The position numbers and the translations under genes are program-made. 64,000 bases of DNA from Myxococcota bacterium (GTDB taxonomy: Bacteria > Myxococcota_A > UBA796 > UBA2385), in the NCBI GenBank assembly GCA_044344255.1, contig JBIJDH010000018.1, forward strand, positions 32,001 to 96,000. Reading direction: 5' to 3'. Positions within the stretch are counted from its first letter, which is position 1, and each line of letters begins with the position of its first letter. The notes beneath the pieces were generated by a model, which was given only the letters and a program-made list of their open reading frames with translations, ran no database searches and was not told the DNA's origin. Positions 13,999 through 32,026 of this stretch are shown piece after piece.

Positions 13999-15216
13999 GT
14001 GACCCGCCCCCCCACCGTCGACCCCGCCCTCGCGCTTCGCTGGCTCTCGCAGGCCCGCCGCGGCGTCATCCTCGCCCAGACGCTGCTTCTGGCCGTTGCG
14101 CGGTTCGGGACCGACGTGCGGCCACCCCTCGTACCGCTCGTCGTCCTGCTCGGAGGGCTCGCCGTCTTCGACATCGTGGAACGCCGACGCGCCCCCACCG
14201 AGAGGCGTGTCGTCATCCACGCGGCCGTCGACCTGCTCGCCCTCACGGGCATCCTGCTCGTGACGGGGGGCGCGCAGAACCCGCTACAGGCGTTCTACCT
14301 CGTCGAGGTCGCGCTCCTCGCGATCGTGCTCCCCGGCCGCGCCGCGTGGATGGCAACGGGCGCCGCGGTGCTCTTGCAGGCCGTGGCAACGGTGTTCGCC
14401 CTCCACATCCCCGGCTTCGACGAGGAGCCGCACCACCATCACGGGCACCTCGCGGGGCATGTGCTGGCGTTCGACCTCGCGGCCGTGGCCGTCACCGCGT
14501 TCGTGGGTCGGCTCTCGGCGGCGCTGCGGGAGCGCCAGGAAGCGCTCCGAGCGTCCGAGGCGGAGCGCGCGCGCAGCGAGAAGCTGGCCGCGCTCGGGAC
14601 GCTGGCCGCGGGGACCGCACACGCGCTTGGGACGCCACTCGGCGCCATCGAGCTCCTTGCGGAGGAGATGGCGCTCGAACCTACGGACGAGACGCTCGGT
14701 GCGCTGCGCGGGGAGGTCCGGCGGTGCCGCGCGATCCTCGACCGGATGCTCGCCGGCGATGGTGGCGCCGACGGGACTACGGATCGGGTCGGTGAGCGCG
14801 TGGCCGGGTGGGTGGAGGCCTGGCGGGCCGGACAGCCCGGCGCGGTGCAGCTCGAAGTGGACGGCGCTTCGGTGCTCGCGACGGTGCTCGGCGGCGAGGA
14901 GGGCTGGCGCGATGCGATGTGGACCCTGCTCGACAACGCGCGCGCGGCGGGCGAGCCGATTCGGGTGATGACGCGTCGCGATGGCGATCGCGTCCTGGTC
15001 ACCATCGAGGACAGCGGCCCCCAGGTCCCGCCCGAGCGCCTCGCCCGCGCGGGCCAGCCGTTCTTCAGCGCGTGGCCGAGCCGTAAGGGGACGGGCCTCG
15101 GCCTCTACGTCGCGCGGACGTTCGCCCGCGCCGCCTCGGGCGACGTCCTGCTCGAGCCTTGCCCCGAGGGCGGCGCCCGGGCCATCCTCACGATGGTCGT
15201 GGTGGAGGGAACGTGA
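13999..15216 (+). CDS. regB: RegB/PrrB/ActS-type membrane sensor histidine kinase
   Basis: TGGAQNP membrane motif, H-box AAGTAHALGTPL, RCRAIL redox Cys, N-box LLDNA, PFFS and GTGLGL. GTG start chosen by comparison with the paralog at 26121. Confidence 0.85.
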   Translation: MTRPPTVDPALALRWLSQARRGVILAQTLLLAVARFGTDVRPPLVPLVVLLGGLAVFDIVERRRAPTERRVVIHAAVDLLALTGILLVTGGAQNPLQAFYLVEVALLAIVLPGRAAWMATGAAVLLQAVATVFALHIPGFDEEPHHHHGHLAGHVLAFDLAAVAVTAFVGRLSAALRERQEALRASEAERARSEKLAALGTLAAGTAHALGTPLGAIELLAEEMALEPTDETLGALRGEVRRCRAILDRMLAGDGGADGTTDRVGERVAGWVEAWRAGQPGAVQLEVDGASVLATVLGGEEGWRDAMWTLLDNARAAGEPIRVMTRRDGDRVLVTIEDSGPQVPPERLARAGQPFFSAWPSRKGTGLGLYVARTFARAASGDVLLEPCPEGGARAILTMVVVEGT

Positions 15217-15728
15217 ACACAGTGCTGGTGGTCGAGGACGACGAGGTCTACCGAAAGGCGCTCGCCCGGGCCCTCCGCCGGGAGGGGTTCGAACCGGTGG
15301 AAGCCGAGAGCGTGGAGTCCGCCCTCGCCGCCCTCGGCGGGATCGCGCCAGCGTACGCGGTCATCGACCTCGCGCTGGGGGACGGCTCCGGCATCGACGT
15401 CGTGCGCGCCATCACCGCGCGTGCGCCGGGATGTCGCTCGTTGCTCCTCACGGCTCACGGGACCATCCCATCCGCGGTCCAGGCCATACGCGCGGGCGCC
15501 GTCGACTTCCGCACCAAGCCCATCTCCACCGCCGAGCTCGTGGACGCCTTGCGCCGTGCCGAGCCCCATCGGCAAGCCCTGCCCGACGAGCTCGACGACG
15601 CTGAGCGCCAGCACATCCAGCGCATCCTCGCGGAGTGCGACGGAAACGTGTCCGAGGCCGCCCGGCGCCTCGGACTTCACCGCCGAACGCTCCAGCGCAA
15701 GCTGGAGAAGCTGGCATCCAACCACTGA
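15213..15728 (+). CDS. regA: RegA/PrrA/ActR-type response regulator
   Basis: VLVVEDD, IDL (phospho-Asp), TKP and diagnostic Fis-type HTH GNVSEAARRLGLHRRTLQRKL; GTGA coupling to the kinase. Confidence 0.9.
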   Translation: MNTVLVVEDDEVYRKALARALRREGFEPVEAESVESALAALGGIAPAYAVIDLALGDGSGIDVVRAITARAPGCRSLLLTAHGTIPSAVQAIRAGAVDFRTKPISTAELVDALRRAEPHRQALPDELDDAERQHIQRILAECDGNVSEAARRLGLHRRTLQRKLEKLASNH

Positions 15729-21498: not shown

Positions 21499-22329
21499 TC
21501 ACCACGTCCGCCCCCCGTGCCCCTCCCCATGGCACGAGCCCTCGCATTGCCGCGTCGGCAACCAGTCCATCCCCTCGGGGAGCGCGACGTCGGCGATGCC
21601 GTCGACGTGCCGCGCCGCGTCGGCGAGCGCGCCGGAGGCGTCCAGCGTGGCCGAGTGACACTCCGCGCACGCGAGCCCCTCGTCCAGGTGCCGCTTGTGA
21701 TCTCCGCTCATCCCGGCCCAGGCCGCGCCTTCGCTCTCCGCGGAGGCGTGGCAGTCGTCGCACGCGGCGAAGGTCTGCCCGACCGCCGCGGTGCCGTCGT
21801 TCCCCTGGCCGTTCCCGTGGCAGTACAGGTTGGAGCAGGTCCCGGACCCGGCGTACACCGCCGCCGGTGAGATCCCACCGGCAAAGGCGACCTCAGCGAC
21901 CGAGGGCGTCGCGTCCCCGTGGAACACGTGCCCCTCCGAGAGGGCATCGGCTGGGCGGGTGTGACATTGGACGCAGTCGTACGCCCCATGCAGGTTGGTG
22001 GTCACGTGCGCGGTGTGCGCCGCGAAGCTGATGTCGGCGTCGGCGCCGTCGATGTCTCGCGGAGGCGCGCCGGATGGCTCGTTGGTGCCGCCGTGGCAGA
22101 ACGTGCAGTCGGTGCGCCATCCCACGGGGTGACACGTGTCACAGGAGACAGCGGCCCCTTCCCCGGAAAGATCGGCGCCGTGGCAGTCCACGCAGACTTC
22201 CGCCTGGCTCTTGGCCGCGACACCGTGGACGGTCGGCGCCGCGAACCCGTCCGGATGGTGAGCGGCCGTCGCGGTGTCCTTTCCCGTGGGCGAGCAGGCG
22301 ACGAGGGTGGCGAGGAGGAGGGCGGTCAC
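21499..22329 (-). CDS. Multiheme c-type cytochrome lipoprotein (CxxxxCH/CxxCH type)
   Basis: LVAC lipobox; CVDCH, CDTCH, CTFCH, CVQCH, CDDCH and CAECH plus atypical CSNLYCH and CEGSCH. Confidence 0.88.
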   Translation of the reverse strand: MTALLLATLVACSPTGKDTATAAHHPDGFAAPTVHGVAAKSQAEVCVDCHGADLSGEGAAVSCDTCHPVGWRTDCTFCHGGTNEPSGAPPRDIDGADADISFAAHTAHVTTNLHGAYDCVQCHTRPADALSEGHVFHGDATPSVAEVAFAGGISPAAVYAGSGTCSNLYCHGNGQGNDGTAAVGQTFAACDDCHASAESEGAAWAGMSGDHKRHLDEGLACAECHSATLDASGALADAARHVDGIADVALPEGMDWLPTRQCEGSCHGEGHGGRTW

Positions 22330-22387: not shown

Positions 22388-22441
22388 TTGCGTTGATCCT
22401 CCGCTCGCCGCTATCCGTACGACCCACTGTACGAGGAGCCC

Positions 22442-23341
22442 ATGGCACCGCCCACCTCCCTCCGCGCCCTTGCCATCGCCGCCTTCGCCACCTTCGGCGC
22501 AGGCTGTACCGGCCACGATCACGACGACACCGCCCACGCCGATGACACCGCGCACGAGGCGGACACCGACACCGATACGGACGCCGACACCGATACGGAC
22601 ACCGACACCGACGTTGTCGACCCCCTGACCACGGACGACGACCTCGACGGCGTGAGCGAGAACGACGGCGACTGCAACGATCGCAACGACGCCGTCTACC
22701 CCGGCGCGCGCGAGCGCAGCTTTGACGGCGTCGACTCCGACTGTGACGGCGCCGAGCTCCCCGCCGGCGGTTCGGACCGCTACGCCGAGGCGCTCCCCCT
22801 CCTCGACACCGACGAGGACGGCGCGGTCTCCTTCGAGGAGTTCGACGCGGCGTGCACCGCCTCGGCGATGGTGCTCGGGGAGGCGAATCCGGGCGTGGTC
22901 CAGACCCACGTGAGCTGCGGCGGCACCAACAGCTGCCGGGGCATGGTCCTGCACCCGTGGAACGAGCTCTACGAGCACGACTGTCGCGGCGTGAACGGCT
23001 GCGCCGGGTGGAGCTGCGTCGAGACGGTGGACGGTGCGGGGCGGGACGGCGCCACCGTCTACACCGAAGCCACGTGCGACTGGTGCCATGGCGGAGAGGG
23101 CACCTTCCTCGTCCACACGCCGGCCGGGGAGGACCCGGAGAGCTGGATCGCCACCTTCTTCGACCGCACCGACACGGAGTTCCGCTCCGCGATCGCCTTC
23201 GGGATGGACGGGATCGACTCCGATGGCGTGGCCACGCGCGACATGCCCGGCTTCCACGAGCGGATCTCCCGGGCCGAGATGGACGCGGTGATCGCGTACA
23301 TCCGCACGCTCCCGGTCGCGGCCCCGCCCGAAGAAGAGTGA
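22442..23341 (+). CDS. Lipoprotein with bufferin-like Cys motifs fused to class I cytochrome c; putative MNIO substrate
   Basis: GAGC lipobox, His/Asp-rich linker, (DT)n, one MopE-like repeat, EF-hand-like DTDEDGAVSFEEF, HVSCGGTNSCRG and HDCRGVNGCAG, then CDWCH...DMPGF...AVIAYIRTL. Confidence 0.8.
   Translation: MAPPTSLRALAIAAFATFGAGCTGHDHDDTAHADDTAHEADTDTDTDADTDTDTDTDVVDPLTTDDDLDGVSENDGDCNDRNDAVYPGARERSFDGVDSDCDGAELPAGGSDRYAEALPLLDTDEDGAVSFEEFDAACTASAMVLGEANPGVVQTHVSCGGTNSCRGMVLHPWNELYEHDCRGVNGCAGWSCVETVDGAGRDGATVYTEATCDWCHGGEGTFLVHTPAGEDPESWIATFFDRTDTEFRSAIAFGMDGIDSDGVATRDMPGFHERISRAEMDAVIAYIRTLPVAAPPEEE
22562..22612 (+). repeat. (GACACC)-type coding microsatellite, Asp-Thr linker
   Basis: Encodes DTDTDTDADTDTDTDTD. 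Confidence 0.9.
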
Positions 23342-24150
23342 GCATCGCGCGCGACGCCCTGGGCATCGGCCTGAGGCGCCCGCACGTGGACGCCCTCCTC
23401 GCCGAGCACGCGCCCATCGGCTTCCTCGAGGTGATCGCCGAGAACCACCTCGACGCGGGCTCCCTTCCGCGGGCGCGCCTCGACGAGATCGCGGCGCGCT
23501 ACCCCGTCGTCGGGCACGGCGTCGCGCTGAACCTCGTGGGCGCGGAGCCGCTCGACCTCGTGCACCTGGAGCGCGTTCGGGAGTTGGTGCGGGCCTACGG
23601 GATGCCCTGGTTCAGCGACCACCTCTGCTGGTCGGCCTCCGGCGGGCACCGTCACCACGACCTGTTGCCCGCACCCTACGATCCCGAGCTGGTGCCCTAC
23701 GTGGCCGCCCGCGCGCGCTTCGTGCAGGACTTCCTCGGCGTGCCGTTCGGCATCGAGAACCTCTCGTCCTACGTCGCCTGGGGCCGCGACCGGATGCCGG
23801 AGTGGGAGTTCTATCGGCGAGTCGTGGACGCGTCGGATTGCTGGTACATGCTCGATCTGAACAACATGTATGTGTCGAGCGTGAACCACGGCTTCGACCC
23901 CATGGACTACCTTGCCTCCGTGCGGTGGGACCGGGTGCTCCAAGTGCACATGGCGGGGCACCTCGTGCGGCCCGACGGGCTCCGGCACGACACGCACGAC
24001 CGTCCCGTCTGCGCCGAGGTCTGGGCGCTGTACCGCGAGGCGTGGGCGCTGGGCGGGCCGTTCCCGACGCTGCTGGAGTGGGACGACCAGGTGCCGCCGC
24101 TGCCCGAGGTGCTCGCCGAGGTCGCCAAGGCGGCGAGCGTGCGCACGTGA
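23338..24150 (+). CDS. DUF692 family multinuclear non-heme iron oxidative enzyme (MNIO, BufB/HvfB-like)
   Basis: GIGLRRPH, EVIAEN, HGVALNL, WFSDHLCW, DLLP, IENLSSY, LDLNNMYV, QVHMAGH, DTHD and TLLEWD; GTGA overlap with the upstream gene. Confidence 0.93.
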   Translation: MSIARDALGIGLRRPHVDALLAEHAPIGFLEVIAENHLDAGSLPRARLDEIAARYPVVGHGVALNLVGAEPLDLVHLERVRELVRAYGMPWFSDHLCWSASGGHRHHDLLPAPYDPELVPYVAARARFVQDFLGVPFGIENLSSYVAWGRDRMPEWEFYRRVVDASDCWYMLDLNNMYVSSVNHGFDPMDYLASVRWDRVLQVHMAGHLVRPDGLRHDTHDRPVCAEVWALYREAWALGGPFPTLLEWDDQVPPLPEVLAEVAKAASVRT

Positions 24151-25067
24151 CGTCGCTTCCGCCGCCGCCCCCGTGGCTCGCGCCGCTCCAGGAGGCGTTC
24201 GGCGCGCTGCTGGAGACGCCGCTCGACGCGACGGGCGGCACCCTGCGCTCCTCTGCCGACGCGCCGGCGCTCACGGCGGCGCTGGCGGACCCGGCCACGG
24301 CGCGGGCGCGCCTCGCGCTCTACCACGAGCAGTACTGGATGCGCCTCTACGGCTCGCTCCACGCGGAGCTGCCGCGGTTCGCGCAGGTCGTCGGGTATTG
24401 GCGCTTCAATGGGCTCGCCACGCTCCACCTCCGTGAGGCGCCGCCCACGCGCGTGGACCTCGCGCGCTGCGGAGACGGCCTCGCCGCGCGGCTCCTCGCC
24501 GGGATCGATCGCGTCGCCGCCACGGCCCCGCCGCCCGGCACCCCCGACACCCGGCCGATCGGACTGCTGGTCACAGTCGCGGGCCCCTGGGAAGCCGCGC
24601 TGCGATCGGTGTCGGCGCCCGTCGACCTCGCCCGGCAGGCGCTTCGAATGGACGAGGCGGCGCGCCGCGCCCTCGCCTCCCCGTTCGCGGGCGTGTGGCG
24701 GCCGTCCGGCGCCGACGCCGCCTCGCTCCCCGAGCGGCGGCTGCGCTTCGCGCCGTCGTTCCGCCTCCTGCGGGAGGACTGGGCCCTCGCCGAACGCGCC
24801 GTGCCATCGGACCCGCCCGCGCCCTTCGCGCGCCACGCCGAGCCGTGGTTCTGGGTGTCGTTCCGCGCCGAGCGCACGACCGCCCTGGCGCGGGTCGAGC
24901 CGGGCTTCGCGCGACTCCTGGCGCTGGCTGCGGAGCGGCCGTTCGGCGAGGCGATCGACGCGCTCGCGCAAGGCCGCGACCCGACGGAGACGGCGGCGTT
25001 GGGCGCGGCGCTCCCCGGTTGGATCGAGCGCGCGTTGACCTCCGGATGGTGGATCGGGGCGCGGTGA
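24147..25067 (+). CDS. DUF2063-like MNIO partner (BufC/HvfC-like)
   Basis: LQEAFGALL...ARLALYHEQYWMRL...LPRFAQVVG...F N-terminal pattern; coupled to the DUF692 gene. Confidence 0.8.
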   Translation: MTSLPPPPPWLAPLQEAFGALLETPLDATGGTLRSSADAPALTAALADPATARARLALYHEQYWMRLYGSLHAELPRFAQVVGYWRFNGLATLHLREAPPTRVDLARCGDGLAARLLAGIDRVAATAPPPGTPDTRPIGLLVTVAGPWEAALRSVSAPVDLARQALRMDEAARRALASPFAGVWRPSGADAASLPERRLRFAPSFRLLREDWALAERAVPSDPPAPFARHAEPWFWVSFRAERTTALARVEPGFARLLALAAERPFGEAIDALAQGRDPTETAALGAALPGWIERALTSGWWIGAR

Positions 25068-25222
25068 GCGGGGATGTCGGACCCGGAGGAGGGCGCCAGA
25101 GAGCGTCGGTGCCCCTGCGGGCGGCGGTCGGCGCCCGCGGCTCACGCCGCGGCCATCGACGGTGCCCCGGAGGAGGGTGCGGCCGCGCTCGGCGGGGGCT
25201 ACCCTGGTCCCGAGGAGCCCTG

Positions 25223-26041
<819 letters not shown>

Positions 26042-26120: not shown

Positions 26121-26915
26121 GTGCACCCACCCCCGCCCACCCTCGCGCTCCGCTGGCTCGTCCGCCTCCGCTGGTGGGCCGTGGGCGCGCAAGCGGGCGT
26201 GCTCGCCGCCGCGACATTGGGCCTCGACGTCGACCTTCCGCTCCCAGCGCTCGCGGGCGTGGTGGGCACCGTGGCGCTCTCGAACGTCGCGCTCTCGCGG
26301 CTCCAGCGCGTCCATCCCTTGCTCCTCCCCGGCACGCTCCTGGCCGCGGAGCTCGAGGCGGACGACACGCTCGGCGCGGACACACGGGAGGATCTCGCCC
26401 TCATCCGCCGCGAGACGGAGCGCTGCCGCGCCATCCTCGCCCGGATGTCCACCGAGCCCGGGGTGCACCCCGGCGAGACGCTCGCGCCGATCGCCCTCGC
26501 CGGCGCGCTCAGCCGGATGAAGGAGCGATTCGGTCCCCGCGCGGAGCGGATCTCCGTTCACGCCGCGCCCGAGACGGTCGTGCGGGCCCCCGCCGCCGCG
26601 GTCGAGCGCGCCCTCGCCGGCCTCGTGGACAACGCGCTCCGGGCCGCACCGGCGCCCGCGCTGGTGCGGATCGAGGCGACCGAGCGGGACGGGCGGGTCT
26701 CCATCGCCGTCTGCGACACGGGTCCCGGCATCCCACCCGAGCACCTCGGCAAGGTCGGAGAGCCGTTCTTCACGACGCGACCCGCGGGAGAAGGCATGGG
26801 CCTCGGCGTCTTCCTCGCCCGGCGGCTCGCCGAGGAGCTCGGGGGGGCCTTCCTCGTGGAGTCGGCTCCCGGCCGCACCGTGGTGACGCTCACGCTCCCG
26901 GGCCATCCGGCATGA
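26121..26915 (+). pseudogene. Internally deleted RegB-type kinase
   Basis: Retains LALRWL N-terminus, RCRAIL, LVDNA, PFFTT and GMGLG but lacks the later TMs and the H-box His. Confidence 0.75.
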
Positions 26916-27621: not shown

Positions 27622-28812
27622 TCACTCCTCGAACGGATCGCTGTGGGCCGGGTTCTCCACGAACGTGTGGTCCGTGAACGATTCGAGGAACGCGACCACC
27701 GCGTCGATCTCCTCGTCCGTCGCGTCGAATCCCCGGATGAGACCCGACTTCAGAGGGCTGACGCGGCCGTCTCCCGCGTAGTCCCCGTCCTCGATCACGC
27801 GCCCGCCCGCAGCATAGTGCTCGACCATCTCGCGGAGGGTGGGGATGCTCCCGTCGTGCGTGTACGGCGCGGTGAGCTCGACGTTGCGCAGGCTGGGGGG
27901 ACGGAAGAATCCACGCAGATCGAGATCGATCCGAACGTCGTAGAGCCCCTGATCGTAGGCTGGATAGCTCCCCTCTCCGTCGACGTTGTAGAGGCCCGTG
28001 TTGAAGAACGGGTATTGGATCGTGTCAGCGGTCGTCCGCCAGTCACGGTAGGAGCCGGTCGCGTTCGTGCCACCATGGCAGTGGAAACACTCGAACTTCT
28101 CCCCGTTGAACAACGTCATGCCCGACTTCTGCTGATCGGTCAGGGCGTCCCGGTCGCCGGAGACGAACCGGTCATAGGCGCTGTCGCCCGACACGAGGCT
28201 CCGGCAGAAGCTGGCCAGGGAGTACGCGATCTTGTTGAGCGTGGCGCCTGACTCGCTCTCCGGGAACGCCTCAGCGAACATGCCTGCGTAGGTGGGGTCG
28301 TCATCGAAGCGCGATAGGACCTCGGCCTGAACGCCGTCGTTGACGCCCAACTCCACCGGGTTGTCCCCGGTGATGGGCACGAGGAGCTGGTTCTCCATCT
28401 CCAACATGCCATCGTGCGCCCACGTCAGCGTGGAGTACCAAGCGACATTCGCCAGCCCCGGGCTGTTGCGAACCAACGTCTCCCCGGTCGAGCCCTGCGG
28501 GGAGCTCTTGCCGTCGGAGAACGCCAGCTCCTGGAGGTGGCAGTTCGCGCACGCCTGGGTCCCGTTTCCCGAGAGGCGCTCGTCGTAGAACAGGTATCGA
28601 CCGAGCTCGATCTTCTCGGGCGTGAGCGGATTGTAGTCCGGGATGTACGGCACCTCGAGGTGGTCCGGCAGGTCCAGGAGCTCGCGGACGTAGGCCTGCT
28701 CGTCGCCCTCGGCCGCGGGCGCGTCCGGATCGACGACCTCGTCGGGCTCGCACGCCGCGACTCCACCCAGCCCGAGCACGACGACGAGACGGAACGCCGG
28801 GATGGATCGCAC
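27622..28812 (-). CDS. mbnH: MbnH-type di-heme enzyme (bCcP/MauG superfamily)
   Basis: NPLTPEKIELGRYLFYD, CANCH, RNSPGLAN, CFHCH and FRPPSLRNVELTAPYTHDGS; directly downstream of mbnP. Confidence 0.85.
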   Translation of the reverse strand: MRSIPAFRLVVVLGLGGVAACEPDEVVDPDAPAAEGDEQAYVRELLDLPDHLEVPYIPDYNPLTPEKIELGRYLFYDERLSGNGTQACANCHLQELAFSDGKSSPQGSTGETLVRNSPGLANVAWYSTLTWAHDGMLEMENQLLVPITGDNPVELGVNDGVQAEVLSRFDDDPTYAGMFAEAFPESESGATLNKIAYSLASFCRSLVSGDSAYDRFVSGDRDALTDQQKSGMTLFNGEKFECFHCHGGTNATGSYRDWRTTADTIQYPFFNTGLYNVDGEGSYPAYDQGLYDVRIDLDLRGFFRPPSLRNVELTAPYTHDGSIPTLREMVEHYAAGGRVIEDGDYAGDGRVSPLKSGLIRGFDATDEEIDAVVAFLESFTDHTFVENPAHSDPFEE

Positions 28813-28819
28813 GTGGCCC

Positions 28820-29773
28820 TCAGTTCACGCTGAACGCGAGGTTGTCCGCGGCGGCCGACGCCCCGGAGGCGAGGTCGAGGCCCACGTTCGCGAAGAACGG
28901 CGCGCAGTCGGGCTGCATGGAGGACGAATGACACTCGACTCCGACCCCCTCACCGATGACCTCGAAGGTCTCGGGGTCGTAGATGGGCGAGAGAAAATCG
29001 AGCCCGGCGAGGAGCGTGGGGATGTCGAGCGTGACGACGTTCGTCTCGAGGTCGAAGTCGGTGAGCTCTACCGAGGGAGTGTTCACGTACCCGCACTCGT
29101 CGCGGGACTCGAGCGCGAGCTCGCCGTCGCCTGCGCAGTCGACGCTGCCGATGTGGAGATAGCCCTCTCCGGTCTCGGTTCCGTCGTCCACCGTCATGTT
29201 GAACGCGAGGTGACGGTATCCGGTGGCCCACGACCAGTAGAGCTCGTTCAGCGGGGAGGGAGCTGCCTCCACGGAACCGGAGCCGATCACCTCCTGCATG
29301 AGGGCCTGGGGGACGCCGACATCGAACGACACCGAGGCGACGTGGTGCACGATCGTGGAGCCGGTGATGGCGTCGTTGGTCCGCGCGGTGCCTTCCGAGA
29401 AGCTGATGGCGGAGGCGACGCAGCTGCCGTCGGTGTTGCCGGTGAGATCGATCAGCCCGACCCATCCAGCCGCGCCGGTGTACTGGAAGTCGTTCGCGTC
29501 GAAGGTCGCCTCGACGGCGGCCCCGTTCTCGTCCCAGAACTGTACGTTGGACACGAAGAACCGGAGGTCGCTCATCCCGACGGTGTGCTGGCCGGCCGGG
29601 CCGAGGCCCGCGACGGGTGTGGTGCAGTCGGCGGGCGCGCCGTCGGCGGTCGCCTGGAAGCGGAGGCTGAAGGCCTCGGCCTCGTCATGATGCTCGTCCT
29701 CTTCCTTGGGATCGCAGGCGATGACGGAGAGCAACGGGATGAACAGGCAGAGGCTCGGATGGGCGCGGAACAT
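28820..29773 (-). CDS. mbnP: MbnP-type copper-binding protein
   Basis: DLRFFVSNV, FDVGVP, LYWSWATGY (WxW), HIGSVDC and CHS...DC; lipobox VIAC. Confidence 0.85.
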   Translation of the reverse strand: MFRAHPSLCLFIPLLSVIACDPKEEDEHHDEAEAFSLRFQATADGAPADCTTPVAGLGPAGQHTVGMSDLRFFVSNVQFWDENGAAVEATFDANDFQYTGAAGWVGLIDLTGNTDGSCVASAISFSEGTARTNDAITGSTIVHHVASVSFDVGVPQALMQEVIGSGSVEAAPSPLNELYWSWATGYRHLAFNMTVDDGTETGEGYLHIGSVDCAGDGELALESRDECGYVNTPSVELTDFDLETNVVTLDIPTLLAGLDFLSPIYDPETFEVIGEGVGVECHSSSMQPDCAPFFANVGLDLASGASAAADNLAFSVN

Positions 29774-29830
29774 GGGCGGCCCCAGTAACGATGGTGGCAC
29801 GAGGCTATGCCATGCCGTCCGCCGCCGTGA

Positions 29831-29847
29831 TGCGGCATGTTGTCGCA
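29831..29847. promoter_or_regulatory. RegR/RegA-type box upstream of mbnP
   Basis: t-GCGGC-ATGTT-GTCGC-a, a perfect GCGGC-N5-GTCGC, 57 bp before the mbnP ATG. Confidence 0.7.
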
Positions 29848-29885
29848 GCACTCTGCCCGTGGCGGCCCGACTCGTCGAACGCAGC

Positions 29886-30002
29886 GTGTCCAGCGGGTAC
29901 TTCCTCAACGACACGGCTCCGTTGGAGGAGCGCGAGCCGGCCTCGTCGTGGCACGCGGCAGCGCGCGTGACCCCTCGGTGGTTGTGGCCGGGTGATGGGC
30001 GG
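29886..30002 (+). repeat. Diverged 117-bp direct repeat, copy 2
   Basis: VSSGYFLNDTAPLEEREPASSWHAAARVTPRWLWPGDGR versus copy 1 at 21300-21416. Confidence 0.8.
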
Positions 30003-31202: not shown

Positions 31203-32026
31203 TGTCCCTCGCTCTCCTCTGGGTGACCGCCCTCTCCAGCGTCGCGCAGGCGACCATCGACCCCAAGTGCCAGGACCTGGCCGACGAGGGCCCCCCCGCC
31301 GGCTACTCCGAGCAGGGGCAGCAGGACTGGCTGCTGAACTACTTCTCCCTGGCGACGACGCTGTCTCCGATGCACCCGCCGGTGCCCGTCGAGCCCGGTC
31401 ATGGCACCGTGGGCCTCGAGCTGATGGTGATCCCGCCGGTGAGCTGCGAGCACCGTCTCGTGCTCGGCTATTCGAAGACGGAGGACACGAACAAGGCCCC
31501 GGTGGCGCCCCGCCCGCGGGTGACCTTCGCGTTCCCCAAGGTGGGGCCGCTGATCCTCTACGGTGGCTTCGCCTACGTGCCCCCGATCACGGTCTTCGGG
31601 ACCCGCAATGTCATCGTCAGCGCGGAGGCGGGCGTCGGCTACCCGATGGAGAGCGGCCTGCAGCTCGGCCTCCGCTACCACGCCACCCTGATGAAGACGG
31701 TCGCGGAGATCGCCACCCCCTTCAACGAGGGAGATCCCGCGAAGGACGACTTCTATGTCGGCTCCACCTTCGGAACCGACGCCATGGTTGGCTTCGAGAC
31801 GAAGAAGCTCACGCCCTATGTCGCGCTGGGCTTCACGGATGTGAGCACCTACTTCTACATCGGTGACGATGGGTATGTGGGCAACAACGCGGACCCCTTC
31901 CTCGGCTTCACCGGGTCGGTCGGCACCAACCTCCACCTCGTGAAGTGGCTGGATCTGGATGGGGAGCTCTACACGGCCCCTGGCTATCTCTACACGGGGC
32001 GGCTCCGGGCGGCGATTCGACTTTAA
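31199..32026 (+). CDS. Secreted protein, probable outer-membrane beta-barrel
   Basis: Signal peptide (VAQA), alternating amphipathic strands (TPYVALGF); ATGA coupled to the cytochrome. Confidence 0.6.
   Translation: MMSLALLWVTALSSVAQATIDPKCQDLADEGPPAGYSEQGQQDWLLNYFSLATTLSPMHPPVPVEPGHGTVGLELMVIPPVSCEHRLVLGYSKTEDTNKAPVAPRPRVTFAFPKVGPLILYGGFAYVPPITVFGTRNVIVSAEAGVGYPMESGLQLGLRYHATLMKTVAEIATPFNEGDPAKDDFYVGSTFGTDAMVGFETKKLTPYVALGFTDVSTYFYIGDDGYVGNNADPFLGFTGSVGTNLHLVKWLDLDGELYTAPGYLYTGRLRAAIRL

Follow-up and report, generated by a model that had tools for sequence, protein, structure and literature searches.

The locus

The stretch of DNA analysed here is 64,000 nucleotides (nt) long (positions 32,001 to 96,000 of contig JBIJDH010000018.1, from Myxococcota bacterium assembly GCA_044344255.1; below, "the window") and has a G+C content of ~72%. 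It includes three + strand genes, packed end to start over positions 22442-25067, for a lipoprotein with a cytochrome c domain (gene 1), an iron enzyme, an MNIO of the DUF692 type (gene 2), and a DUF2063-type partner (gene 3). Judged from sequence, the lipoprotein is most likely the substrate of the MNIO/DUF2063 pair, as a precursor of the bufferin/captophorin type. Lengths are in amino acids (aa); ORF stands for open reading frame.

22433-22438, + strand: Shine-Dalgarno sequence of gene 1, GAGGAG, 4 nt 5' of the ATG at 22442 (read directly from the sequence)
22442-23341, + strand: gene 1, 299-aa lipoprotein and proposed MNIO substrate, designated P0001 (from ORF, translation, homologues, and conservation)
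23338-24150, + strand: gene 2, BufB-like MNIO (DUF692), 270 aa, without a signal peptide (PF05114, E 5e-94)
24147-25067, + strand: gene 3, BufC-like DUF2063 partner, 306 aa (PF09836, E 1.3e-10, residues 41-114)

The genes are coupled by GTGA overlaps, as a first-pass annotation of the window had read them: the gene 1 stop codon is inside the GTG start of gene 2 (23338-23341), and the gene 2 stop is inside the GTG start of gene 3 (24147-24150). When the locus was checked for membership in the bufferin-type cassettes, a Cys-containing precursor, predicted to be exported from its C22 lipobox, was found directly before the MNIO gene and ending within its start codon, and a DUF2063-type partner (PF09836, E 1.3e-10; GTGA overlap) directly after it. 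The DNA between gene 1 and its upstream neighbour amounts to 112 bp.

Contigs from the metatranscriptomes of two freshwater/riverine studies match gene 1 without a difference at 22459-22636, 22590-22787, and 22880-23121, and one RNA-library contig matches the MNIO gene, again without a difference, at 23519-23669. These give a weak hint of natural expression; such libraries can hold DNA and indicate neither strand nor level, and the parts of the genes without cover carry no meaning.

The source assembly is a draft genome of 83 contigs (95% complete), in which an adjacency of genes, or a fusion within one, could be produced by misassembly or faulty gene calling. Independent genomes and metagenomes show the same fused ORF with its genes in the same order, however, and 17 DNA runs hold at least half of the sampled words of the window (four possibly being the source itself), so that an artefact is scarcely credible here. 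The Thr-Asp linker of gene 1 is a simple DNA repeat (ACCGAC-like) at 22562-22612, where foreign contigs pile up and create false joints in the read layout.

Architecture of the lipoprotein

Gene 1 can be divided as follows:

22442-22507, + strand: signal peptide and lipobox Cys C22 (residues 1-22, ...FGAGC), from the hydrophobic stretch; C22 is present in 47/47 aligned homologues
22508-22621, + strand: low-complexity linker, His/Asp and then Thr-Asp (residues 23-60, tract at 25-57), from the translation
22670-22753, + strand: MopE-type Cys repeat (residues 77-104), PF11617, E 1.8e-9, 38.1 bits against a cut-off of 27
22805-22840, + strand: EF-hand-like Ca-binding loop, D122-x-D-x-D-G-x-V-x-x-x-E133, canonical by eye and conserved
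22853-23017, + strand: six-Cys bufferin-like core (C138, C159, C165, C181, C187, C192), from conservation and a weak BufA2 match
23033-23320, + strand: class I cytochrome c domain (residues 198-293), PF00034, 31.6 bits against a cut-off of 21.3, residues 202-290

The lipobox, His/Asp tract, MopE-like repeat, EF-hand-like loop, and distal DMPGF (residues 267-271) of the first-pass annotation can all be located in the translation, as can its two C-x-G-x-N-x-C-x-G motifs, both within the six-Cys core: HVSCGGTNSCRG at residues 156-167 (22907-22942), and HDCRGVNGCAG at residues 179-189. The haem motif CDWCH had been described as following the core directly; it is at residues 212-216 (23075-23089), 20 residues past the sixth Cys, C192. 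With CxxCH, a distal Met (Met268, 23243-23245), and a cytochrome c fold, all of the features of a class I cytochrome c are present, and haem attachment is predicted. The PF11617 match concerns the repeat motif only, and has no bearing on the copper site of Methylococcus MopE. Pfam EF-hand models give ~16 bits on gene 1, below their cut-offs of 25-30, while an EF-hand-type NCBIfam model is matched by 29 of the 47 homologues. The first core Cys sits on the exiting helix of this loop.

An AlphaFold2 model based on the 47-homologue alignment is confident for residues 60-299, with a mean predicted local distance difference test score (pLDDT) of 79; beyond residue 60, most 10-residue blocks are at 82-98 and four are at 68-78, and residues 1-49 are below 50. 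A helix at 131-140 bears C138 in the model, and four short strands bear the remaining core Cys. Structural matches by VIA-align cover residues 198-293 only, and there the fold is that of class I c-type cytochromes (best Z 8.1, root-mean-square deviation 2.2 A over 71 residues, for 5mxz), with dozens of cytochromes c ranking behind the best match. The core modelled alone from 7 sequences had a mean pLDDT of 57, too low for a fold comparison. Its profile found none better than E 1.6 among PDB sequences, an ESM Atlas search with residues 125-200 gave no usable match, and Foldseek found no match in the PDB at E <= 0.001 for the full gene 1 model.

Conservation and distribution

A search of 5.8 billion clustered proteins yielded 132 matches to the gene 1 protein; among the 120 matches listed, 95 have E <= 3e-48 over most of its length. 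Named homologues appear as "MopE-related protein," "EF-hand domain-containing protein," or "c-type cytochrome," and are from Myxococcota, including many Sorangium strains. Across the 47 aligned homologues, C22, C138, C159, C181, C187, C192, C212, C215, H216, M268, and P269 are invariant, along with C78 and C101 of the MopE repeat and D122, E133, and F134 of the EF-hand loop; C165 is kept in at least 90%, and so are D124, D126, G127, and S130. Because the Cys, CxxCH, and Met-Pro residues are invariant or nearly so, these features of gene 1 are not a matter of chance. A short subfamily, found in other Myxococcota, is without the MopE repeat and EF-hand and retains the fusion of six-Cys domain and cytochrome.

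A profile of the core alone (A2) matched 206 of 1.84 billion representative proteins at E <= 0.001, 165 of them at E <= 1e-10. Among the best 150 of the 206, cytochrome fusion is the commonest architecture:

82 of 150: core with a CxxCH tail of at least 70 residues
9 of 150: core with a similar tail containing CX3CH or CX4-5CH
54 of 150: core at the C-terminus, in 1-4 tandem copies
5 of 150: truncated or unclear

Conserved positions in 244 domains from 236 proteins include each of the core Cys (96-100%) as well as H156, G161, N163, [RKA]166, G167, E178, H179, [RKA]182, N185, G189, and S191. C165 is sometimes lost singly, which leaves an odd number of Cys in some members and so fits a modifiable Cys better than a disulfide partner. 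The CxxCH variants, CX3CH (e.g., CGSMCH, CASTCH) and CX4-5CH (CGAGGCH, CGNGGGCH), are found in P0126, P0133, P0138, P0145, P0147, P0151, P0152, P0158, and P0185; motifs of this kind are uncommon as haem attachment sites, and a dedicated lyase may be required for them.

Linkage to the maturase genes

The first-pass annotation had proposed, as a check, a neighbourhood survey for core-CxxCH fusions next to DUF692 genes. This was done with a profile of the core plus cytochrome module (A3) over 401 Myxococcota genomes (400 sampled, plus the source genome), and by a scan of metagenome contigs; both found the two linked. MopE repeats dominated a search with the full-length alignment (A1), which A3 replaced, and a single-protein search of genome contigs gave 65 loci, 64 of which shared no more than the MopE repeat, L004 being the sole true relative. 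Gene context was taken from hidden Markov model matches on all stop-to-stop ORFs, the DNA being of high GC content.

The A3 profile found 10 fusion loci in 9 genomes, that is, nine non-self loci in eight genomes. An MNIO gene and then a DUF2063 gene are directly downstream in seven of these nine, fused to each other in one ORF in three of the seven. In G115, the MNIO/DUF2063 pair is ~2.9 kb upstream of the fusion gene, on the same strand. The metagenome scan gave 53 loci, 34 with core plus cytochrome; one of these, with only 49 bp downstream, was left out as uninformative. The MNIO gene is directly downstream on the same strand in 30 of the remaining 33, and is followed by DUF2063 in 21 of the 22 contigs that extend at least 1 kb beyond the match. 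At 90% identity the fusion loci form 25 clusters, 23 of them linked; L171, an exception, has a DUF2063 fragment 3.1 kb upstream. No conserved neighbourhood outside the three genes was found in six related loci.

Six-Cys domains without a cytochrome

The six-Cys domain also occurs without the cytochrome, in 1-4 tandem copies at the extreme C-terminus of small lipoproteins with low-complexity linkers. A search for shorter homologues of residues 125-200 produced one candidate and none that scored; the stand-alone cores came later, by profile. MNIO/DUF2063 genes are usually convergent with, or adjacent to, these core-only genes as well, and the MNIO link therefore follows the Cys domain. One such locus, L112/L119 (G165:C1:2158422-2159705), has three tandem lipoprotein genes, each with a single six-Cys core at its end (124, 216, and 158 aa as stop-to-stop ORFs), convergent with MNIO and DUF2063 genes, which match overlapping stop-to-stop frames on the opposite strand.

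These loci bear on whether gene 1 might be an ordinary periplasmic lipoprotein cytochrome with three structural disulfides, accompanied by an MNIO and DUF2063 protein that act on some other substrate and travel with it through copper or redox homeostasis. Such a cytochrome would account for a core below the BufA2 cut-off and for the few fusion genes without a nearby MNIO; a sizeable share of bufferin precursor genes are themselves not beside an MNIO gene, and some MNIO substrates are hard to find (PMC12452194). It would not account for a linkage that follows the six-Cys domain with or without the cytochrome, nor for an A-B-C order with start/stop overlaps as in bufferin clusters (PMC12452194), and the single loss of C165 in some members, with the odd Cys count that results, fits a modified Cys. 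The locus has no room for a hidden small ORF. A separate small precursor elsewhere, which the first-pass annotation had named as the alternative substrate, was found in neither locus nor genome, where the best BufA2-like match is gene 1 itself. On this evidence an ordinary cytochrome is unlikely.

The MNIO and its partner

Gene 2 matches PF05114 (MbnB_TglH_ChrH) at E 5e-94. Its best NCBIfam model is NF050167, BufB (290 bits against a cut-off of 310), and the HvfB model gives 239 bits (cut-off 360); these scores place it in the BufB/HvfB group without giving it the rank of a BufB equivalog. Residues H60, H95, E140, D173, N176, H204, D218, H220, E247, and D249 are invariant in seven relatives. 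The sequence E247-W248-D249-D250 includes the putative catalytic Asp, D249. Relatives in the PDB are 3bww, 8hci, and MbnB; gene 3 has no PDB match by sequence. A complex prediction for the MNIO, the DUF2063 protein, and the core scored 0.00 in both runs, with the fold of the partner uncertain, a score that speaks neither for nor against a complex.

In G317, G062, and G159, a single ORF of 583-593 aa encodes both MNIO and DUF2063 and comes immediately after a core plus cytochrome c gene of the short type; both Pfam domains are in one protein in the fused ORFs at L124:710-2458 (- strand), L125:4868-6622 (- strand), and L127:1379-3157 (+ strand). The source genome has two further MNIO genes, at G000:C74:69916-70695 (L002) and G000:C20:149597-150274 (L003), which match PF05114 at E 1e-56 and 2e-20. 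The L002 MNIO (a 334-aa ORF) is preceded by a 210-aa ORF, which is not Cys-rich, and a 249-aa ORF.

All characterised clusters of an MNIO and a PME1 (DUF2063-type) partner are described as installing 5-thiooxazoles, and the enzymes of the BufB/HvfB group characterised so far as yielding 5-thiooxazoles and copper binders (PMC13097082). Gene 1 could nevertheless be a substrate that yields something else: a different modification or a different metal, a sensor regulated by Ca through the EF-hand, or a cytochrome that docks to a respiratory or MbnH-type partner. Genes for a di-haem MbnH and a multihaem cytochrome are indeed nearby; neighbours beyond the three genes are not conserved in relatives, however, and so do not point to a fixed external partner. 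Conservation of the EF-hand loop is strong among MopE-bearing members, though the short core plus cytochrome subfamily lacks it, and in some 9 of the best 150 relatives CxxCH is replaced by CX3CH or CX4-5CH. Since the enzyme groups with BufB and HvfB, whose characterised members make 5-thiooxazoles and copper binders (PMC13097082), a product of another kind is unlikely.

Relation to the bufferin precursors

The BufA2 model (NF050166, cut-off 60 bits) gives 15 bits for P0001 (E 0.021), 18.2 bits for the core alone, and 14-25 bits for the stand-alone core relatives. It is matched by 21 of the 47 homologues at E <= 0.1, the best at 2.3e-4, and a four-domain relative, P0160, bridges the two families with 53.8 bits to BufA2 and E 8e-22 to the core profile. 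The DUF2282 model (PF10048) has no match in P0001, and none in the genome at E <= 1. The bufferin-like Cys core of the first-pass annotation is accordingly retained as a weak but recurrent BufA2 similarity, one that fails the curated BufA2 cut-off and has no DUF2282 counterpart, and the core is treated as a distinct sister family of Buf2, not a member of it.

A trait of the BufA2 family, six conserved Cys in a small domain, is present (96-100% of the 244 domains). The two C-[RK]-G motifs of gene 1 also fit the "Cys-Lys" precursor group, whose MNIOs tend to have an Asp after the catalytic Asp (PMC13097082); in gene 2 this position is D250.

Gene 1 as the substrate

The proposal that the MNIO substrate is the 299-aa lipoprotein itself, made in the first-pass annotation, is backed by gene order, translational coupling, linkage, the stand-alone cores, and the lack of any other candidate in locus or genome. 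The interpretation favoured here, with fairly good confidence, is that genes 1, 2, and 3 form a bufABC-type (bufferin/captophorin) cassette in which the precursor is one domain of an exported lipoprotein, and a thiooxazole-copper site would be joined to a haem.

A number of observations weigh against it. The core was rejected both as a member of BufA2 or BUF_6/12Cys (15-20 bits against a curated cut-off of 60) and as a BufA1/DUF2282 type (no PF10048 match in gene 1 or the genome), and its profile, with 206 proteins in 1.84 billion representatives, fails to reach most of the Buf2 proteins in the literature. The score of the MNIO is 20 bits short of the BufB equivalog cut-off, and D250 of the enzyme varies in relatives (D, E, or A). 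C165 is replaced in ~4% of the 244 domains. A second fusion copy in G230 (G230:C11) has no MNIO within ~6 kb, with a linked copy in the same genome, and no MNIO is present in the 3.5 kb downstream of the L157/L158 cluster. Finally, a stand-alone cytochrome c of this type was found beside core-only genes in 0/19 metagenome and 0/7 genome loci, within the available flanks, and no split arrangement there backs a partnership of core and cytochrome.

Proposed maturation and function

Gene order, coupling, conservation, linkage, and domain identities are observed directly; for gene 1, we infer Cys modification, its sites, the thiooxazole chemistry, copper binding, and electron transfer, in part from Buf2. 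In Buf2, the four central Cys lose 4.03 Da each, CysI and CysVI are unmodified and probably pair, and modification does not require the signal peptide (PMC11626156). By analogy, the BufB-like MNIO and its DUF2063 partner would oxidise C159, C165, C181, and C187 to 5-thiooxazoles in the cytoplasm, and C138 and C192 would be left unmodified for a disulfide. The still-unfolded protein would be exported by Sec and then lipidated at C22, and the cytochrome c maturation system would join haem to C212/C215 in the periplasm, H216 and M268 serving as the axial ligands. Both Sec export and the ligation of haem work on unfolded protein, which makes this sequence of steps a consistent one. The source genome holds cytochrome c assembly genes.

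The mature product would be a membrane-tethered, periplasmic, copper-binding thiooxazole domain covalently linked to a one-electron haem carrier, with the EF-hand loop and MopE-type repeat ahead of it. Its most likely role would be in copper handling, with bound Cu(I)/Cu(II) exchanging electrons with the haem. The copper sensor or haem-copper electron-transfer protein suggested in the first-pass annotation is a conjecture drawn from the architecture. A natural haem-thiooxazole-copper redox protein, in which copper at the thiooxazoles swaps electrons with the cytochrome, could act as a membrane-anchored cuprous oxidase or cupric reductase of an undescribed kind; this is put forward tentatively, as possible rather than probable. 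If true, it would also explain why Sorangium and other Polyangia have "orphan" MNIO/DUF2063 pairs, for which no precursor is given in published surveys.

Bufferins and captophorins have been described as a class of ribosomal modified peptides that ranks with the most populous (PMC13097082), and are understood as passive copper buffers; a conserved family with the modified domain set in a lipoprotein and joined to a one-electron haem carrier would point instead to active redox chemistry on the bound metal, and to MNIO enzymes that act on one domain of a multi-domain protein.

Genomic surroundings

Judging by domain matches, the genes around the cassette are metal-related: they include MbnP and MbnH, a YtkA-like lipoprotein, DUF4198, and a TonB-dependent receptor. 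Those with coordinates are:

14116-15725: complete kinase/regulator pair
21499-22329, - strand: multihaem CxxxxCH/CxxCH cytochrome, divergent from gene 1
25211-26041, + strand: YtkA-like lipoprotein with its own (Thr-Asp)n linker, after gene 3
26121-26912, + strand: histidine-kinase ATPase domain with no recognised HisKA/sensor part, between the YtkA-like gene and MbnH
27622-28812, - strand: MbnH-family di-haem enzyme, TIGR04039, 453 bits against a cut-off of 363
28820-29914, - strand: MbnP-family copper-binding protein, TIGR04052, 196 bits against a cut-off of 140

The MbnH/MbnP pair (27622-29914, - strand) is 2.5 kb downstream of the cassette, and DUF4198 and the TonB-dependent receptor are further neighbours. 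A 276-aa ORF at L121:3053-3883 has the same length and divergent position as the multihaem cytochrome gene.

The ORFs scanned between 14 and 34 kb include neither a DoxX nor an ECF sigma gene, in agreement with the first-pass annotation, and DoxX has no match in the whole source genome (95% complete); in eight relatives it is on other contigs or 1.4 Mb away. The accompanying statement that DoxX is usual in bufferin loci does not hold for buf2-type clusters, which are normally without it, as is that of Caulobacter Buf2 (PMC11626156). In G115, a gene with an FGE-sulfatase domain (L128:7392-8612, - strand) is convergent with the core plus cytochrome gene, an arrangement that recalls the Buf1-Cytochrom_C-FGE-sulfatase chimaeras discussed below. 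The source genome has 48 FGE-sulfatase matches, none on the contig of the window; given that number, the adjacency in G115 is possibly due to chance.

Precedents in published surveys

The principle of a bufferin-cytochrome fusion is already in print. Chimaeras designated Buf1-Cytochrom_C, with or without FGE-sulfatase, are reported in "a few instances," as are MerC fusions and Buf_EGKCG-EF-hand chimaeras (PMC12452194), and the claim in the first-pass annotation that no example had been described was too strong. For the six-Cys/cytochrome lipoprotein family, no description was found in the literature searched on bufferins, captophorins, MNIOs, thiooxazoles, or DUF692/DUF2063 with cytochromes, nor were the terms "Cytochrom_C" and "MopE" found in the supplements of PMC12452194, as far as these go (one file is incomplete).

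The core plus cytochrome layout appears to have been missed by published surveys of MNIO systems. In one of these, ~16% of Buf2 precursors are given as carrying lipoprotein signals, and signal-peptide precursors in the first collection (the cluster set) were restricted to <200 residues (PMC12452194). In the 12 Polyangia rows examined in its genome table there are zero Buf1, Buf2, and Buf_EGKCG entries, along with 1-6 DUF692 genes in nine rows and 1-3 DUF2063 genes in eight (PMC12452194). The family described here would fill this gap in the precursor landscape. The homologue in Sorangium cellulosum So ce56, WP_012240313.1, is numbered just before the MNIO (WP_012240314.1) and DUF2063 protein (WP_012240315.1) of that table; the consecutive numbers hint that the three genes are adjacent, and this homologue makes a cultured strain available for testing.

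Comparison with known systems

The closest comparison is with bufferin 2 of Caulobacter vibrioides (BufA2/BufB2/BufC2; captophorin class; PMC11626156, PMC13097082). The order precursor-MNIO-DUF2063, the exported precursor, and the lack of DoxX are the same; both have a domain of ~55-60 residues with six conserved Cys and C-[KR]-G and N-x-C motifs; and BufB is the best model for the MNIO. In gene 1, however, the Cys domain, with its predicted modification and copper binding, lies inside a 299-aa lipoprotein and ahead of a cytochrome c domain, and it gives 15-20 bits on the BufA2 model, where the cut-off is 60.

The Buf1-Cytochrom_C and Buf1-Cytochrom_C-FGE-sulfatase chimaeras likewise combine a bufferin-type domain and PF00034 in one exported protein, but theirs is the four-Cys DUF2282 domain, found in "a few instances" (PMC12452194), whereas that of gene 1 has six Cys. 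In the Buf_EGKCG-EF-hand chimaeras (PMC12452194), an MNIO/DUF2063 substrate is joined to a Ca-binding EF-hand, as the proposed substrate gene 1 is to an EF-hand-like loop, and there is a Glu three residues before the target Cys (E-G-K-C in the chimaeras, E-H-x-C in gene 1); unlike them, gene 1 has no EGKCG repeats, and its EF-hand-like loop is before rather than after the Cys domain.

With the class I c-type cytochromes (c6/c551/c552 type), gene 1 shares CxxCH, the distal Met-Pro, and the fold. It differs from them in having, fused ahead of the cytochrome domain, a Cys-rich domain whose gene is linked to that of a peptide maturase.

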